Origin: Eledone cirrhosa
Taxonomy: Eukaryota
Length of the DNA stretch: 64,000 nucleotides
NCBI GenBank assembly: GCA_964016885.1
Contig: OZ024754.1
Coordinates: 10,106,001 to 10,170,000, forward strand
Direction of reading: 5' to 3'
Below, one piece after another: positions 7,419 through 62,569 of this stretch (its first letter is position 1; each line of letters starts with the position of its first letter). The notes beneath the pieces are model-generated. The model had not been told where the DNA came from. It worked only from the letters and a program-made list of their open reading frames with translations, and ran no database searches. A program made the position numbers and the translations under genes.

Positions 7419-10231
7419 GGCACTCCATCGGTTCTGATGGCAAGGGTTCCAGTTGATCCGATCAACAGAACAGCCTGCTTGTGAAATTAACATGCAAGTG
7501 ACTGAGCATTCCACAAACACAAGTACCATTAACGTAGTTCTCAGGGACATTCGGCATGACACAGAATGTGACAAGGCTGTCCCTTAGAATTACAGGTACA
7601 ACTCATTTTTGCCAGCTGAGTAAACTGGAGCAGCATGAAATAAAGTGTCTTGCTCAAGGATCAGCAGTAAACTGGAGCAGCATGAAATAAAGTGTCTTGC
7701 TCAATGATCAGCAGTAAACTGGAGCAACGTGAAATAAAGTGTCTTGCTCAAGGATCAGCAGTAAACTGGAGCAACGTGAAATAAAGTATCTTGCTCAAGG
7801 ATCAGCAGTAAACTGGAGCAGCATGAAATAAAGTATCTTGCTCAAGGATCAGCAGTAAACTGGAGCAACATGAAATAAAGTGTCTTGCTCAAGGATCAGC
7901 AGTAAACTGGAGCAACGTGAAATAAAGTGTCTTGCTCAAGGATCAGCAGTAAACTGGAGCAACATGAAATAAAGTGTCTTGCTCAAGGATCAGCAATAAA
8001 CTGGAGCAACGTGAAATAAAGTGTCTTGCTCAAGGATCAGCAGTAAACTGGAGCAACATGAAATAAAGTGTCTTGCTCAAGGATCAGCAATAAACTGGAG
8101 CAACGTGAAATAAAGTGTCTTGCTCAAGGATCAGCAGTAAACTGGAGCAACATGAAATAAAGTGTCTTGCTCAAGGATCAGCAATAAACTGGAGCAACAT
8201 GAAATAAAGTGTCTTGCTCAAGGATCAGCAGTAAACTGGAGCAACATGAAATAAAGTGTCTTGCTCAAGGATCAGCAATAAACTGGAGCAACATGAAATA
8301 AAGTGTCTTGCTCAAGGATCAGCAGTAAACTGGAGCAACATGAAATAAAGTGTCTTGCTCAAGGATCAGCAATAAACTGGAGCAACGTGAAATAAAGTGT
8401 CTTGCTCAAGGATCAGCAGTAAACTGGAGCAACATGAAATAAAGTGTCTTGCTCAAGGATCAGCAATAAACTGGAGCAACGTGAAATAAAGTGTCTTGCT
8501 CAAGGATCAGCAGTAAACTGGAGCAACATGAAATAAAGTATCTTGCTCAAGGATCAGCAGTAAACTGGAGCAACATGAAATAAAGTGTCTTGCTCAAGGA
8601 TCAGCAATAAACTGGAGCAACGTGAAATAAAGTGTCTTGCTCAAGGATCAGCAGTAAACTGGAGCAACATGAAATAAAGTGTCTTGCTCAAGGATCAGCA
8701 ATAAACTGGAGCAACGTGAAATAAAGTGTCTTGCTCAAGGATCAGCAGTAAACTGGAGCAACATGAAATAAAGTATCTTGCTCAAGGATCAGCAGTAAAC
8801 TGGAGCAACATGAAATAAAGTGTCTTGCTCAAGGATCAGCAATAAACTGGAGCAACGTGAAATAAAGTGTCTTGCTCAAGGATCAGCAGTAAACTGGAGC
8901 AACATGAAATAAAGTGTCTTGCTCAAGGATCAGCAATAAACTGGAGCAACGTGAAATAAAGTGTCTTGCTCAAGGATCAGCAGTAAACTGGAGCAACATG
9001 AAATAAAGTGTCTTGCTCAAGGATCAGCAATAAACTGGAGCAACATGAAATAAAGTGTCTTGCTCAAGGATCAGCAGTAAACTGGAGCAACATGAAATAA
9101 AGTGTCTTGCTCAAGGATCAGCAATAAACTGGAGCAACATGAAATAAAGTGTCTTGCTCAAGGATCAGCAATAAACTGGAGCAACGTGAAATAAAGTGTC
9201 TTGCTCAAGGATCAGCAGTAAACTGGAGCAACATGAAATAAAGTGTCTTGCTCAAGGATCAGCAATAAACTGGAGCAACATGAAATAAAGTGTCTTGCTC
9301 AAGGATCAGCAGTAAACTGGAGCAACATGAAATAAAGTGTCTTGCTCAAGGATCAGCAATAAACTGGAGCAACATGAAATAAAGTGTCTTGCTCAAGGAT
9401 CAGCAGTAAACTGGAGCAACATGAAATAAAGTGTCTTGCTCAAGGATCAGCAGTAAACTGGAGCAACATGAAATAAAGTGTCTTGCTCAAGGATCAGCAA
9501 TAAACTGGAGCAACATGAAATAAAGTGTCTTGCTCAAGGATCAGCAGTAAACTGGAGCAACATGAAATAAAGTGTCTTGCTCAAGGATCAGCAGTAAACT
9601 GGAGCAACATGAAATAAAGTGTCTTGCTCAAGGATCAGCAGTAAACTGGAGCAACATGAAATAAAGTGTCTTGCTCAAGGATCAGCAGTAAACTGGAGCA
9701 ACATGAAATAAAGTGTCTTGCTCAAGGATCAGCAATAAACTGGAGCAACATGAAATAAAGTGTCTTGCTCAAGGATCAGCAGTAAACTGGAGCAACGTGA
9801 AATAAAGTATCTTGCTCAAGGATCAGCAATAAACTGGAGCAACATGAAATAAAGTGTCTTGCTCAAGGATCAGCAGTAAACTGGAGCAACATGAAATAAA
9901 GTGTCTTGCTCAAGGATCAGCAGTAAACTGGAGCAACATGAAATAAAGTGTCTTGCTCAAGGATCAGCAGTAAACTGGAGCAACATGAAATAAAGTGTCT
10001 TGCTCAAGGATCAGCAATAAACTGGAGCAACATGAAATAAAGTGTCTTGCTCAAGGATCAGCAGTAAACTGGAGCAACGTGAAATAAAGTATCTTGCTCA
10101 AGGATCAGCAGTAAACTGGAGCAACATGAAATAAAGTGTCTTGCTCAAGGATCAGCTTGCCACCGGGAATCAAACTCATGACCTTATGATTGTGAACTGA
10201 ATTCGCTAACCACAAAGCCATGCACCTTCAC
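7419..10231 (-). mobile_element. tRNA/CORE-type SINE expanded by an internal tandem array
   Basis: tRNA-like head at 10160-10231 (minus), CCTTGAGCAAGACACTT core, SINE body 7419-7618. Confidence 0.85.
7619..10156. repeat. 47-bp minisatellite, about 54 copies
   Basis: Unit AGTAAACTGGAGCAACATGAAATAAAGTGTCTTGCTCAAGGATCAGC with few variable sites and no spacers. Confidence 0.97.
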
Positions 10232-12179: not shown

Positions 12180-12303
12180 AAAGTTTTATTTAAAATTGTT
12201 GGGTTACGAGTAAATATTTTATAACTGATATAAAAGCACTCAACAGGTTTTGGAGTATTTTACGATATAAAACAAATGGAAACTACATTTATAAAACCAT
12301 ATT

Positions 12304-12369
12304 TATTTCATTATATATATTTCAGGGATATCATATTAAAAATATGGTATGCCCTCTTCAGATAAAATA
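12304..12369 (-). ncRNA. Minimal type I hammerhead ribozyme (mirror copy)
   Basis: Exact reverse complement of 12395-12460. Confidence 0.8.
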
Positions 12370-12394
12370 CAATATATAAACTGTTTATATATTG

Positions 12395-12460
12395 TATTTT
12401 ATCTGAAGAGGGCATACCATATTTTTAATATGATATCCCTGAAATATATATAATGAAATA
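12395..12460 (+). ncRNA. Minimal type I hammerhead ribozyme
   Basis: Stem I TATTTTAT/ATGAAATA, core CTGAAGA (12403), 31-nt stem II, GAAA (12441), palindromic ATATATAT stem III, predicted cut after 12452. Confidence 0.8.
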
Positions 12461-12497
12461 AATATGGTTTTATAAATGTAGTTTCCATTTGTTTTAT

Positions 12498-12555
<58 letters not shown>

Positions 12556-12812: not shown

Positions 12813-13067
12813 CTAAGGCGGGTAAAATTCCCGAGATCCATGGACGAGTTCTCTCCAGCGGTCTCTGTCCCTCATTATCGCTGCCATATCCTGCATCTCC
12901 AACAGACCAGTGTCTGTCCTTAGGGCATCAACATATGTTAACCTTGGTCTTCCTCTTCTAGTGTGTCCATGTAGGGGCTCCCAAAGGAGCACTGAGTGCA
13001 ATGTCATCTCTGGATGTCGGTGAGCATGTCCAGCTAACCTCAGTCTCCTCTGTGTCACTTTTGAGCT

Positions 13068-21115: not shown

Positions 21116-21120
<5 letters not shown>

Positions 21121-21324
21121 GAAGGAAATGTGGTAAGGAACCAGATGGACCATAACGCACCAAAGTACTCAATACTTAGGGTAGTAGAGTGGGTGATAGG
21201 AATGTGTAGGACCCCGACGGCTGAGCTCAAGCCGTTTCGACGGCTAATTCCGGACTAAAATTTAGTCCAGAATTAGCCGTCGAAACAGCTTGAGCTCAGC
21301 CGTCGGGGTCCTACTCGTTCCTAT
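21116..21324 (-). mobile_element. Fold-back element, same family as 40.1 and 51.0 kb (HHR 3' half only)
   Basis: Palindrome about 21196-21324 centred near 21260; tail 21116-21195; (TA)n on both sides. Confidence 0.8.
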
Positions 21325-21378
21325 AGATATATATATATATATAGATATATATATATATATAGATATATATATATATAT

Positions 21379-40111: not shown

Positions 40112-40299
40112 ATAGGAGAAAGTATGACCCCGACGGCAGAGCTCAAGCTGTTTTGACGGCTATTTCTGGAATAAAGTCGAAACGGCTTGAGCTCTGCCGT
40201 CGGGGTCATACTTTCTCCTATTACCCACTCTACTACCCTAAGTATTGAGTACTCTGGTGCGTTATGGTCCATCTGGTTCCTTACCACACCTCCTTCGTT
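40112..40299 (+). mobile_element. Fold-back element, same family as 21.2 and 51.0 kb
   Basis: Inverted arms about 40112-40157 and 40176-40221, tail, (TA)n on both sides. Confidence 0.8.
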
Positions 40300-41258: not shown

Positions 41259-41558
41259 GGGCTTGCAATCAAAAGGTTGTGAGTTCAATTCTCGGACCGG
41301 GTGAAATGTTGCTTCCTTTATTTCACATTGCTCCAGTTTATTCAGCTGTATAAATGAGATGATAGGGACTGGGGTCCCTATCATTCCACTGCAGAGTGGT
41401 GGTGAAGGTGCCACAGCAAAAAAGCACCCAGCACTCACTGTAAATGAGGTTGGTGTTAGGAAGGGCATCCAGCTGTAGAAATCAAGCCAGAATCAGTTCC
41501 CGCCCCACCCTTGCAAGCAGGGAAAAGCAGACGTAAAATGATGATGGTGATGATGATG
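41257..41558 (+). mobile_element. Young tRNA/CORE SINE with (GAT)n tail
   Basis: Reverse complement of the 11.7 and 51.7 kb copies with small deletions. Confidence 0.85.
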
Positions 41559-41611
41559 AACTGTTAAGGTATCTTTTCTTGGTTATGTCAAAATTTATAA
41601 AACAAACTTTG

Positions 41612-41672
41612 TATTTTATCTGATGAAAGCGTACCAAAGTTTTGGTGCCCTTGAAATATATATAATAAAATA
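41612..41672 (+). ncRNA. Minimal type I hammerhead ribozyme, 12.4-kb family
   Basis: Stem I TATTTTAT/ATAAAATA, CTGATGA (41620), stem II AAGCGTACCAA..TTGGTGCCCTT, GAAA, ATATATAT, cut after 41664; downstream sequence matches 12460-12500, then (TA)n. Confidence 0.82.
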
Positions 41673-41716
41673 AATATGGTTTTATAAATATAGTTTCCAT
41701 TTATTTAATATCATTG

Positions 41717-43310: not shown

Positions 43311-43631
43311 AGATATATGTATATTTATATATATACATATATATACACACATATGTATATTTATATATACACACAGGTATATATATATATACACACACAC
43401 ACGTATATTTATATATATTTATATATATATTTATATATATATATATATATACATATAGATATAGATAGGTAAATATACACGGGTGTGTATGATTGTGTAT
43501 AGAAGATTATATTAATAAGAGGAATTCCAACTTTGTCTGATTTACTCGTTTTATTTACAATCCTTTAAAATATATATAATATGGTATTATAATGAAATAG
43601 TATGATAGAATATTAAATTCTAAGTGTTAAT

Positions 43632-43670
43632 TGAACAAGTACTTTCATGCTTTCGCAATCTTCAGGTTCA
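43632..43670 (-). ncRNA. Minimal type I hammerhead ribozyme (mirror copy)
   Basis: Reverse complement of 43726-43764. Confidence 0.78.
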
Positions 43671-43725
43671 TGATATGTGGTGACAGTCGAGTGAAAATTG
43701 CAAACTCGACTGTCACCACATATCA

Positions 43726-43764
43726 TGAACCTGAAGATTGCGAAAGCATGAAAGTACTTGTTCA
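43726..43764 (+). ncRNA. Minimal type I hammerhead ribozyme
   Basis: Stem I TGAAC/GTTCA, CTGAAGA (43731), stem II T-TGC-GAAA-GCA-T, GAAA, palindromic AGTACT stem III, cut after 43759. Confidence 0.78.
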
Positions 43765-44056
43765 ATTAACACTTAGAATTTAATATTCTATCATACTATT
43801 TCATTATAATACCATATTATATATATTTTAAAGGATTGTAAATAAAACGAGTAAATCAGACAAAGTTGGAATTCCTCTTATTAATATATATATACATATA
43901 TATACCACACATATGTATATTTATATATACACACACGTGTATATATATATATCTATATATACATATATATATATATATATTATATACACATATATATATA
44001 TATATATTATATACACACACATACACATAGATACAAATATATATACACTCATATAC

Positions 44057-46071: not shown

Positions 46072-46235
46072 TTCTTCTTCTTCACCCACTTATTCCTGAG
46101 GGTCGGGGGGAAGAAGAGTCCTCAAACACTCCTAGCAGATCCTGTCAGAAGCAGCCGTCTCCAATTGATCCTGCTGGATCATCAACTGAGATCAGCCAAG
46201 CTCATGGATGTTATCCGGCCACCTTGCCTGGGGTC
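46072..46235 (-). mobile_element. RTE-like LINE 3' fragment with (AAG)n tail
   Basis: Minus strand RPQARWPDNI...; GGAGTGTTTGAGGACTC block also at about 62627 (+). Confidence 0.65.
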
Positions 46236-46249
46236 TATCTATTATGTAT

Positions 46250-46884
46250 ATGTGTCCCAGATGCGTGCGCGACGAGGAAACCGTTGCGCACGCATTGGTA
46301 CACAGCTCGGGCGTTGCTGATCTGTGGGGCTATGTCGAACGACTGCTGTCAAGGGCGGGACCAATCCGGTTGACCACTGAGTCCATTGTAATAATCAAGC
46401 CACCTCCCGCCTTCAAAAATGAAGGAGAGGCGGTCTTCCTCTGTGTAATAGCCATGGTGAAAGAGGTGATATGGTGGACACGTTTGAAAGGGTTGAGGTC
46501 GGACACCTTTCTCTCCGGCCAACAACTGGTCCTTTTCTTTAAATACCATTTTAAGAGAAGGATCAGAATGGAGAGGGAGGTGCTCTACCCCAGCAAGTTT
46601 TATGAAAGGTGGGTGAAAGTAGCGAGAATGGCCCATTCACACGGGCCTGTAAGTGGAAAGGTGGAAGTTCAAAGGAGCACCCCCTCACTGTGCTCCTAAG
46701 GAAAAGGGTTACACACTTCTTCGGGGGTGTGTGTAACCCCCAAAACGCCTCCTCCCTATTGAGGACTGTATTGTTAATTTTATATTTGTTATTTGTTTTT
46801 TACTCGTTCCTTTATGTAACCCCCCCCCCCCCCCCTTGTATTTGACCCCTTCTTATGTGCCCTCGTGGCAAATAAATAGAAACT
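46250..46884 (+). mobile_element. 5'-truncated Tx1/L1-clade LINE with zf-RVT-like C-terminus
   Basis: CPRC...ETVAHALVH...LWGYVE...IWWTR motif; 3' UTR with AATAAA; 14-bp TSD TATCTATTATGTAT at 46236-46249 and 46885-46898. Confidence 0.9.
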
Positions 46885-50516: not shown

Positions 50517-50938
50517 TCGTTTCTGAATTTGTTTAGCAAGATTCTTTATCTGAAAACGTGTGTTGAAACCGATATTGTTATACTTTGGGAGGGTCATGTT
50601 GCCAATAAGAAACACACGCACCAGTTGCTGGGGATTCTTTTCTTTGTTTTTTGTGCCTCTCTTTTGTTCTGTCCTACGCCATCTTGATGGCGTAGGACAG
50701 AACAAAGGAGAGGCACAAAAAACCAAGAAAAGAATCCCCAGTCACTGAAGAGGTCACAGAATGTGTGACGAAAGAACTTTGACAATATATAAACAACCAT
50801 CTGATTGTGGAACCAACCAACCAACCGGATATTTATAAATTCCTCAATTTATAAATTTATTATAATAAATTGAAGTGAAAGCAACTGGTGCGTGTGTTTC
50901 TTATTGGCAACATGACCCCTCCCAAAGTATAACAATAT
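50517..50938. mobile_element. Nested fold-back element with degenerate HHR
   Basis: Outer IR 50572-50629 and 50880-50938; inner IR 50628-50683 and 50686-50741; (TA)n flanks. Confidence 0.75.
50741..50783 (+). ncRNA. Minimal hammerhead ribozyme, slightly degenerate
   Basis: Stem I GTCA/TGAC, CTGAAGA (50745), one extra G, stem II GTCACA/TGTGAC, GAAA, AGAACT, UU site. Confidence 0.6.
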
Positions 50939-51042
50939 ATATATATATATATATATAACAAAGGAAATGTGGTAAGGAACTAGATGGACCATAACGCACC
51001 AGAGTACTCAATACTTAGAGTAGTAGAGTGGGAAATAGGAAA

Positions 51043-51150
51043 AAGTATGACCCCGACGGCAGAGCTCAAGCCGTTTCGACGGCTATTTCTGGACTAAATT
51101 AGAATTTTTAGCCTGGTGAATAAATAGCCAAACATGTCAAGGGGGTACTT
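51043..51150 (-). ncRNA. Type I hammerhead with U3-A8 core and extended stem II (A9 mutated in this arm)
   Basis: CCCC-TTGACAT-long stem II-GAAACGGC-TTGAGCTCT-GCCGTC-GGGG. Confidence 0.6.
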
Positions 51151-51359
51151 CCTTATATGGGAAGATTGTAGTTGTCAAGAGGATTGGTTAAAATTTGTTG
51201 TAAACACAAATAAGTCTATCATGGCATTTGGTGGGGGGTAGGGGTGGCTGAACTTGCCTGTAGAACAATAGAGGGGGAGTGAGTGCCATGATAGACTTAT
51301 TTGTGTTTACAACAAATTTTAACCAATCCTCTTGACAACTACAATCTTCCCATATAAGG

Positions 51360-51466
51360 AAGTACCCCCTTGACAAGTTCGGCTATTTATTCACCAGGCT
51401 AAAAATTCTAATTTAGTCCAGAAATAGCCGTCGGAACGGCTTGAGCTCTGCATCGGGGTCATACTT
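51360..51466 (+). ncRNA. Type I hammerhead with U3-A8 core (GAAA and cleavage site mutated in this arm)
   Basis: CCCC-TTGACAA (51370)-CGGCTATTT/AAATAGCCG stem II-GGAACGGC...GCATC-GGGG. Confidence 0.55.
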
Positions 51467-51469
51467 TTT

Positions 51470-51532
<63 letters not shown>

Positions 51533-51676: not shown

Positions 51677-51680
<4 letters not shown>

Positions 51681-52011
51681 TCATCATCACCATCATCATT
51701 TTACGTCTGCTTTTCCCTGCTTGCAAGGGTGGGACGGGAACTGATTCTGGCTTGATTTCTACAGCTGGATGCCCTTCCTAACACCAACCTCATTTACAGT
51801 GAGTGCTGGGTGCTTTTTTGCCGTGGCACCTCCACGACCACTTTGCAGTGGAATGATAGGGACCCCAGTCCCTATCATCTCATTTCTACAGCTGAGTAAA
51901 CTGGAGCAATGTGAAATAAAGTGTCTTGCTCAAGGAAACAACACATCACCCGGTCTGAGAATTGAACTCGCAACCTTTCGATTGCAAGTCCAATGCTCTA
52001 ACCACTAAGCC
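51677..52011 (-). mobile_element. Young tRNA/CORE SINE with (GAT)n tail
   Basis: Near-identical to 11731-12042. Confidence 0.85.
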
Positions 52012-52109
52012 ACTAATTTTATACATATGCATATATATATAAATGTATGTATATATATGCCTATGTATATAAATGTATATGTATATGTATATATATGTTT
52101 GTGTATGTG

Positions 52110-60460: not shown

Positions 60461-61221
60461 AGCCAAGGTTGGGGATATTGTGATCTCTAGCAATGGTGAT
60501 TATTAGAGCAGTGATGATCAAGCTTCAGTTAACAAGCAATTGGCAGAAATTTCAAAACATAAAAGGCCACCTGACCATTTCAAAGTTGGATGGAGAAACC
60601 TAATCAATTCAATATTAGCCTGTTTTAATATATTTTATTCTTTAGAAATTAGCAGGATAGATAAAGAAAATAGGGGGCGAGGCGAGGTGAGGCGAGGGGG
60701 TGGGGTAGGGTGATGAGGTGGGGGTTGATGTCCTCCAGGATGTTCTTTGTTTTTCCTCATCCAGCTTTTCAACACCAACTGTTGAAGAATATGGTGTGGA
60801 AATTAATAGAATGATGTATTTGGAATCGATATGGAGGAGGGAGAGGTGAGAGGTGAGAGTGACATGTAGAGTAAAATTAAAGATTGTTCGGTGAGGGATG
60901 GCTGAGAGGAGGTGAGGGATGGCTGAGAGGAGGAGGGGGAGGGGGAGGTTAGGTGTGTGTGGAGGTGAGGGGTGGGAGGAGGGGGTTGAGTTGAGAAAAT
61001 CAATCTCACTACTTTTGCTGCTATTTAATTTATTAGTCTTACAAACATAAAAGGTAAAGTTGCCCTCCACTCCGTCCAACCCCACCCAAGCAATATTTGA
61101 ATTTGAAACAAGTGAGTTGCTAAGTTTAGAGTTGAGAAAGATTTTCTAAATTTAATTTTGTTTCATTCAAAAATGGCTTCTTTTTTAAAAAAAAAAAAAA
61201 AAAATATTTTGACATCGTTCT

Positions 61222-62432
61222 GATTGATCGACAAGATCCAAGACCTCATCATCCGTTTGCCGAGTGGGGTGGACCTCATCATCCGTTTGCCGAGTGGGGT
61301 GGACCTCATCATCCGTTTGCCGAGTGGGGTGGACCTCATCATCCGTTTGCCGAGTGGGGTGGACCTCATCAAATTGGACCGAGGAAATAATGTTTCTATT
61401 GGTCTTTCCATTGGTGATACCATCCAGTGGTGATACCATCCATTGGTGATACCATCCATTGGTGATACCATCCAACGGTGATACCATCCAATGGTGATAC
61501 CATCCATTGGTGATACCATCCATTGGTGATACCATCCATTGGTGATACCATCCATTGGTGATACCATCCAATGGTGATACCATCCAATGGTGATACCATC
61601 CATTGGTGATACCATCCATTGGTGATACCATCCAATGGTGATACCATCCAATGGTGATACCATCCAATGGTGATACCATCCATTGGTGATACCATCCAAT
61701 GGTGATACCATCCAATGGTGATACCATCCATTGGTGATACCATCCATTGGTGATACCATCCATTGGTGATACCATCCAATAGTGATACCATCCAATGGTG
61801 ATACCATCCAATGGTGATACCATCCAATGGTGATACCATCCATTGGTGATACCATCCATTGGTGATACCATCCAATGGTGATACCATCCAATGGTGATAC
61901 CATCCATTGGTGATACCATCCATTGGTGATACCATCCAATGGTGATACCATCCATTGGTGATACCATCCATTGGTGATACCATCCAATGGTGATACCATC
62001 CATTGGTGATACCATCCAATAGTGATACCATCCATTGGTGATACCATCCAATGGTGATACCATCCATTGGTGATACCATCCAATGGTTATACCATCCAAT
62101 GGTGATACCATCCATTGGTGATACCATCCATTGGTGATACCATCCATTGGTGATACCATCCATTGGTGATACCATCCAATGGTGATACCATCCATTGGTG
62201 ATACCATCCAACGGTGATACCATCCATTGGTGATACCATCCAATGGTGATACCATCCATTGGTGATACCATCCAATGGTGATACCATCCAATGGTTGCAA
62301 CTCCTGGCAGAAGATGCAACGTGAAATAAAGTGCCTTGCTCAAGGACACAACACATCAACAGGTCTGAGAATTGAACTTGCAACCTCACAATTGCAAATC
62401 CAACTCTGTAACCACTCAACCATGCACCTCCA
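61222..62432 (-). mobile_element. tRNA/CORE SINE with 30-bp (4 copies) and 16-bp (55 copies) internal arrays
   Basis: Colinear with 34497-34745; arrays at 61242-61370 and 61408-62294. Confidence 0.88.
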
Positions 62433-62569
62433 CCATTTGAGATGATAATTGCCAATTTTTGGTTGTTAACAGAAAACAATGAAGATAAATAATTATAAGC
62501 AGGAAAAAAAAAAGAAGAAAGAATGCAAAGAGGGAAATTTGGAGAGCAAGTAAAGAATCACTGGACAGA

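Follow-up and report, generated by a model that had tools for sequence, protein, structure and literature searches.

A hammerhead-shaped U3-A8 motif with a long stem II in an abundant, likely Penelope-like repeat family at a locus in Eledone cirrhosa

The window, i.e. the whole 64,000-nucleotide stretch of Eledone cirrhosa DNA that was analysed, holds at 50957-51474 an insertion which we regard as the likely end of a Penelope-like element (PLE), and which extends beyond the interval 51043-51466 described in an earlier note on this DNA. Two inverted arms of 192 and 191 nt, separated by a 57-nt spacer, cover 51035-51474; the right arm meets (TA)n directly, and the left arm is followed by a 78-nt tail before (TA)n is reached. 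The features of the insertion, and the two further copies of the same family in the window, are:

50957-51474, unstranded: whole insertion, likely a 5'-truncated Penelope-like end next to its inverted copy, bordered by (TA)n on both sides
50957-51283, minus: long arm; the template RNA sense is taken to be minus from the orientation of the hammerhead
50957-51034, minus: 78-nt tail, on one side only in 3/3 window copies
51043-51150, minus: left-arm copy of the type I hammerhead, with private lesions at 51134 (A9U) and 51130
51150-51146, minus: 5' strand of distal stem I, left arm
51145-51141, minus: CCCCC of proximal stem I, left arm
51134-51140, minus: core positions 3-9, UUGACAU in the left arm (A9U), UUGA(C/A)AA in the family
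51078-51133, minus: stem II, 56 nt, unbranched according to folding
51077-51074, minus: GAAA, left arm
51056-51074, minus: stem III, 5 bp (strands 51074-51070 and 51060-51056), with a 9-nt loop containing the palindrome GAGCUC
51057-51055, minus: GUC, with the predicted cut between 51055 and 51054
51054-51051, minus: GGGG, the partner of proximal stem I, left arm
51172-51178, minus: repeat of the UUGACAA heptamer 38 nt upstream of the core, which it is predicted to sequester by base pairing
51246-51258, minus: segment complementary to stem III (duplex -19.4 kcal/mol; 2/2000 shuffles as good, counted after the fact)
51227-51283, unstranded: spacer, a fold-back loop of 57 nt with 2-nt microhomology at the junction
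51284-51474, plus: inverted copy of 51035-51226, its hammerhead with UUGACAA intact, GGAA, and a broken stem III
21117-21325 (ends approximate), unstranded: second family copy, with tail and a fold-back in the stem II hairpin; core 5' half absent
40112-40290 (ends approximate), unstranded: third family copy, in opposite orientation, with a fold-back in stem II; core 5' half absent

The left-arm motif is predicted to have type I geometry with helix I open, in a manner that depends on context. Along stem II, the G10.1-C11.1 pair is followed by a 2x1 loop, a 9-bp helix, an 8x3 internal loop and a 7-bp hairpin. The pieces named in the earlier note (UUGACAA core, stem II of ∼56 nt, 5-bp stem III, GAGCTC loop, GUC and CCCC/GGGG) are all found in place and the type I geometry is supported, but folding gives an unbranched stem II where a branched one had been proposed. 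The right arm, on the plus strand, retains an intact UUGACAA at 51370-51376 and carries GGAA at 51433-51436; the 3' strand of its stem III has suffered one deletion and one substitution. Left arm (192 nt) and right arm (191 nt) differ at five places, two of them CpG sites, and all five lie inside the 78 nt of the ribozyme, a clustering with a chance of 0.01-0.03 for a question that was picked after the fact. The core set required of a hammerhead (U4 G5 A6, A9, G12 A13 A14, A15.1-U16.1 and H17) is complete in the majority letters of the family and is broken in both arms at 51035-51474, which are likely dead relics.

Given its majority letters, the 334-nt arm matches a hammerhead descriptor that accepts any Watson-Crick 3-8 pair and a stem II of 6-80 nt, and none of 20,000 dinucleotide shuffles of the arm does so; since the descriptor was composed after the motif had been seen, this figure somewhat overstates the surprise. 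The same descriptor found no match in 200 shuffled windows. A search with Rfam yielded no hammerhead match in the damaged arms, a null result that is uninformative because Rfam also missed the four canonical CUGANGA motifs of the window. A scan with the motif pattern returned 0 matches each in metagenomes, viral contigs and prokaryote genomes; a shorter pattern gave two matches in metagenomes, which lie in unrelated sequence devoid of the flanking motif and are attributed to chance.

The earlier note took the consensus of the two arms as evidence for an intact motif. The arms, however, are not independent witnesses, since the mirror arm likely derives from the same cDNA, as the 2-nt junction microhomology indicates, so that lesions shared by both would be invisible; the decision falls to reads from other copies. 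Four of 15 listed public sequencing runs (X1, X4, X8 and X13; three organisms, with two runs from organism A, one from B and one from E) were matched to 50950-51283 at 80% likeness, the RAD reads among them sampling the family unevenly. Position 9 is A in 40103 of 40214 depth units (X1), in 444 of 556 reads (X13) and in 2/2 contigs in each of X4 and X8. Position 7 is A rather than C in 26% (X1), 30% (X13), 0% (X4) and 51% (X8; one of two contigs), and C and A thus alternate at 26-51% in three of the four runs at what is the sole core position left free in hammerheads. G8 was unseen at 5% in all four runs and must lie below that level, provided that thresholds are equal, because every tallied T>C place is accounted for elsewhere. 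By the same reasoning C3 is absent from X8, where all A>G places are accounted for; this exclusion holds for X8 only, and minor core variants including C3 may occur in X1, X13 and X4. Among the 40 of 103 differences listed, none concerns U3, U4, G5, A6, A8, GAAA or GUC, and 18 of 668 X13 reads as well as one X4 contig lack one U of U3/U4. Record 13 of X4 covers 51050-51188 and differs in two letters, which are the two left-arm lesion sites; hence, an undamaged motif exists in one piece from core to cut site.

U3-A8 is therefore the state of the family, which reads UUGA(C/A)AA in three organisms, and the UUGANAA consensus proposed earlier agrees with it. The reads likewise support that A9U and GGAA are private lesions of the arms of this insertion. 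The note had assigned a different lesion to each arm (A9U on the left; GGAA and a damaged site on the right), and this is confirmed, except that its list for the left arm overlooked the second private change at 51130.

In the stems, no two-sided compensatory change is found among the 40 of 103 differences listed, in reads that are unphased, and a frequent change at 51086 disrupts a stem II pair with no partner change among the same differences. The 3' strand of distal stem I is variable (51042-51048). A consensus of loose ends (82 contigs, 1234 reads) reveals a subfamily that retains GAGCUC, GUC and GGGG, with altered distal stem I and altered loop letters flanking GAGCUC. The low variation of the family may reflect its youth and not selection. 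It is a very abundant family, with 24,439 of 12.5 million reads matching in one run. Depth falls between stem III and the core, within stem II, by 49-, 21-, 22- and 8-fold in the four runs, from which we infer that most copies are devoid of the 5' half of the core. Joints to the opposite strand occur at 51091-51095, and family copies mostly end or fold back at about 51091-51100; a separately amplified short subfamily could be an alternative source of the drop in depth. On the far side, loose ends behind 51268-51271 in X4 and X13 indicate that the family runs on upstream of 51283 in other copies.

The earlier note made no mention of a PLE context. PLE insertions are described as 5' truncated, with an adjacent inverted copy, a tail and a (TA)n target, in passages of PMC8557442 (Craig et al. 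2021). All three window copies (i) show 5' truncation with an adjacent inverted copy and a one-sided tail, a layout that recurs in the opposite-strand joints of the reads, (ii) lie in (TA)n, as do the read joints, which connect position 51035 to (TA)n in 279 X1 contigs and 3812 X13 reads, and (iii) retain the 98 nt past the predicted cut site, the copy ends sitting 20 and 98 nt beyond it. Fold-back points differ among the three, and those of the two other copies both fall inside stem II. The head-to-tail tandem repeats typical of non-LTR retrozymes are not seen among the window copies, which are single and inverted. The PLE identity rests on this layout, because inspection by eye of the window's open frames of at least 80 residues revealed no PLE protein; the copies are heavily truncated.

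The four canonical CUGANGA minimal hammerheads of the window lie within similar (TA)n-flanked stubs. The stub at 12200-12503, of another family, folds back beside (TA)n with a one-sided extension, and both of its arms (12403, plus; 12361, minus) bear a minimal hammerhead with the canonical CUGAAGA. A related single-arm stub at 41560-41715, inside the boundary of a (CAT)n/SINE-like repeat, has a canonical CUGAUGA minimal hammerhead at 41620. A third inverted-repeat stub at 50570-50940 adjoins 50957-51474; it contains a hairpin of 126 nt (50622-50747) and, at 50745, a hammerhead-like motif with the canonical CUGAAGA.

In a 126-nt RNA spanning the motif, most pairs of stems II and III are predicted with probabilities exceeding 0.8, and the active-like fold lies 1.1 kcal/mol above the best one; in a competing fold, U3-C7 are mispaired with the GAAA side (predicted probability 0.3-0.5). 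With at least 40 nt of upstream RNA, the active-like fold is predicted 5.4 kcal/mol above the best (3.0 with A7) and proximal stem I has a probability of 0.02-0.03 (0.22 with A7), because the UUGACAA heptamer at 51172-51178 is predicted to pair with the core. The segment at 51246-51258 abolished stem III (probability below 0.1) in a fold with only two majority letters, and did not with more of them. These predictions for long RNA weigh against free activity as a monomer in long transcripts or, alternatively, point to an off-switch, in that upstream segments may hold the ribozyme mostly off. Folding predicts that two copies of stem III can pair in a dimer duplex at -26.9 kcal/mol, or at -30.7 kcal/mol for the common loop variant, vs -6.5 to -7.1 kcal/mol per hairpin; the palindromic loop would permit dimerisation, as known from other PLE hammerheads, and 5 bp would permit a monomer as well. 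For a tertiary contact between stems I and II, the sole candidate is a 6-bp complement between the stem II internal loop at 51113-51118 and the tail at 50997-51002 (chance 0.02, assessed after the fact), in which both common variants would keep G-U pairs. An alternative hairpin, GCCGU-CGAA-ACGGC, was dismissed with a probability of at most 0.03. The tail also contains an 8-nt perfect palindrome at 51001-51009, 45 nt beyond the predicted cut.

Taken together, we consider it probable that the motif is a U3-A8 hammerhead of an abundant, likely Penelope-like family that would cut its own RNA after GUC, and likely does so conditionally. The letters U3 and A8 can form a Watson-Crick pair and would, by analogy with the literature from which the pairing is deduced, stand in for C3-G8 as the tertiary pair. 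From the layout of the insertion and from work on the Poseidon element of Anolis carolinensis (PMC11167929, Frangieh et al. 2024), one may envisage that the element's endonuclease nicks AT-rich (TA)n DNA, and that its reverse transcriptase initiates at this nick within the tail of an uncut RNA, two start points defining the tail. It would copy through the ribozyme and then stop early, most often at the long stem II, whereupon the cDNA might snap back on itself and build the mirror arm. The ribozyme itself would then likely serve at some other stage, in the processing of tandem transcripts.

It is less probable, though the most serious competitor, that the motif is a silent structure derived from a hammerhead, whose fold would be retained as a signal in the RNA that the element's protein reads, or merely inherited, and which does not cut. 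The competing folds of the longer RNA and the retention of sequence beyond the cut site in 3/3 window copies would both be expected of such a structure; moreover, according to passages of PMC11167929, the Poseidon hammerhead is dispensable in vitro and no reads end at its cut, and minimal PLE hammerheads are weak in vitro according to passages of PMC4209133 (Cervera and De la Pena 2014). Uncut templates, however, are also the rule for Poseidon, whose hammerhead was shown to cut (passages of PMC11167929), and in the present family all core letters fit, the 3-8 pair is compensated, and common core variation falls only at position 7 among the differences listed. We therefore regard a silent structure as unlikely.

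Two further readings are far less credible. The inverted 192-nt arms bordered by TA are reminiscent of a miniature inverted-repeat DNA transposon with a TA target, whose terminal repeats would resemble a hammerhead by chance; the one-sided tail, fold-back points that vary from copy to copy, family sequence that continues past the fold-back and the failure of every shuffle to fit the descriptor make this very improbable. The remaining reading, to which we give less credence still, is that U3-A8 arose by local decay of a CUGACGA core, through CpG loss at positions 7-8 and a change at position 3, and was copied to both arms. C7-G8 would indeed be a CpG, a single template lies behind both arms, and two of the arm differences are at CpG sites. 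Yet G8 went unseen at 5% in four of four runs from three organisms, and A8 also stands beside A7, a non-CpG; decay as the source of A8 is already largely refuted by the reads.

The core swap itself adds nothing new. U3-A8 is a published natural covariation, stated to be active in vitro in passages of PMC3088659 (Perreault et al. 2011), and ∼1,300 PLE hammerheads with U3-A8 are given for Schistosoma mansoni in passages of PMC4209133; the view in the earlier note that U3-A8 is a tolerated swap is thereby borne out; novelty of the core swap is not supported. Only the very long stem II looks unusual. No report that combines U3-A8 with a stem II of 56 nt and a palindrome-looped stem III of 5 bp, and none of the family, was found in the literature in the parts covered; the supplements of PMC4209133, PMC3088659 and 10.64898/2026.07.22.740005, as well as subscription papers, may hold similar forms. 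Among natural U3-A8 variants, which share the 3-8 covariation, stem II is commonly short, compared with 56 nt here, and a long stem II with a U3-A8 core is not described in the passages of PMC3088659 considered. The Cercyon-type PLE hammerheads of S. mansoni (passages of PMC4209133) share type I geometry, location in a PLE terminal repeat, U3-A8, G10.1-C11.1, a helix I of 4-5 bp and motif pairs on opposite strands 100-700 bp apart, but have a helix II of 7-8 bp and little or no helix III, whereas in the present motif stem II, with its internal loop, spans 56 nt and stem III consists of 5 bp capped by a 9-nt loop. Variants of dimeric PLE hammerheads are reportedly described in a separate paper, which may hold similar forms.

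Hydra-clade and Chlamys/PLE-X hammerheads, according to passages of PMC8557442, share the (TA)n target, a helix III of 3-5 bp, an inverted truncated copy and a tail. The cores listed there are, however, all C3-G8, including two starred PLE hammerheads with a loop 2 of 29-35 nt, and tails measure 30-40 nt, as opposed to U3-A8 and a tail of 78 nt. When six motifs from the window were compared with the consensus sequences of the PMC8557442 supplement, five were absent or gave unrelated matches and the sixth matched only unrelated 3' ends; hence, the family was not found among the consensus sequences listed. Poseidon (passages of PMC11167929) likewise has an uncut hammerhead in inserted copies, an AT-rich target, copy ends about 90-100 nt beyond the cut and two end points that define a tail, and it differs by its C3-G8 core, its known ORF and its demonstrated protein-assisted cleavage, whereas cleavage is predicted here. 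According to the same passages, the 3-8 pair of the Poseidon hammerhead is needed, the hammerhead is not required for insertion in vitro, the RNA serves as template mainly in its uncut form, and reverse transcription initiates 85-92 nt beyond the cleavage site, compared with a tail end 98 nt past it here.

Motif searches in the 5 kb supplement to a paper on Octopus vulgaris repeats (PMC13282606), which does not include the repeat library, found nothing. The 3' ends of Naiad_Obim and Naiad_Ovul in the PMC8557442 supplement contain short motifs in similar order and may represent a decayed or a different three-way junction. A link to Naiad was dropped: by eye, the two octopus ends do not conform at A9 and H17, and no such motif is apparent by eye at the ends of three further cephalopod Naiad elements from this partly covered source.

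It is tempting to speculate, as a wider reading that we hold to be doubtful, that the family represents a class of long-armed U3-A8 hammerheads, capable of acting as monomers and held off by upstream decoys (the anti-stem-III segment and the duplicate core heptamer), in which stem II is the main site of reverse-transcription stops and snap-back, seeding near-perfect hairpins throughout the genome. Such a ribozyme would evade both CUGANGA and short-stem descriptors, and PLE families reported to be without hammerheads would merit a new search allowing for 3-8 covariation and a long stem II; that standard CUGANGA searches miss the UUGA(C/A)AA family, as the earlier note had maintained, is supported. 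If the motif cuts, the hammerhead descriptor would be widened by a covaried core and a 56-nt stem II occurring together in an abundant family. The retention of the ribozyme even where uncut RNA is inserted is a puzzle in the PLE papers, and the C7 and A7 forms, the two forms of loop III and the upstream decoys would provide a natural set with which to address why PLEs keep it.

The window is rich in other repeats. A homogeneous 47-bp tandem array with copies about 96% alike occupies approximately 7480-10200, and a second array, of about 20-bp units with long open frames on the minus strand, lies at 61166-62557. A perfect 185-nt inverted repeat with an 11-nt spacer is present at 43508-43888. 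A SINE-like dispersed repeat at 41316-41559 recurs at 51678-51921 with 97% identity, and a tRNA-like segment at 51952-52013 (Rfam tRNA, 29.2 bits) ends this dispersed repeat. Finally, the open frames at 46190-46696 and 12816-13000 resemble what we take to be C-terminal fragments of LINE proteins.
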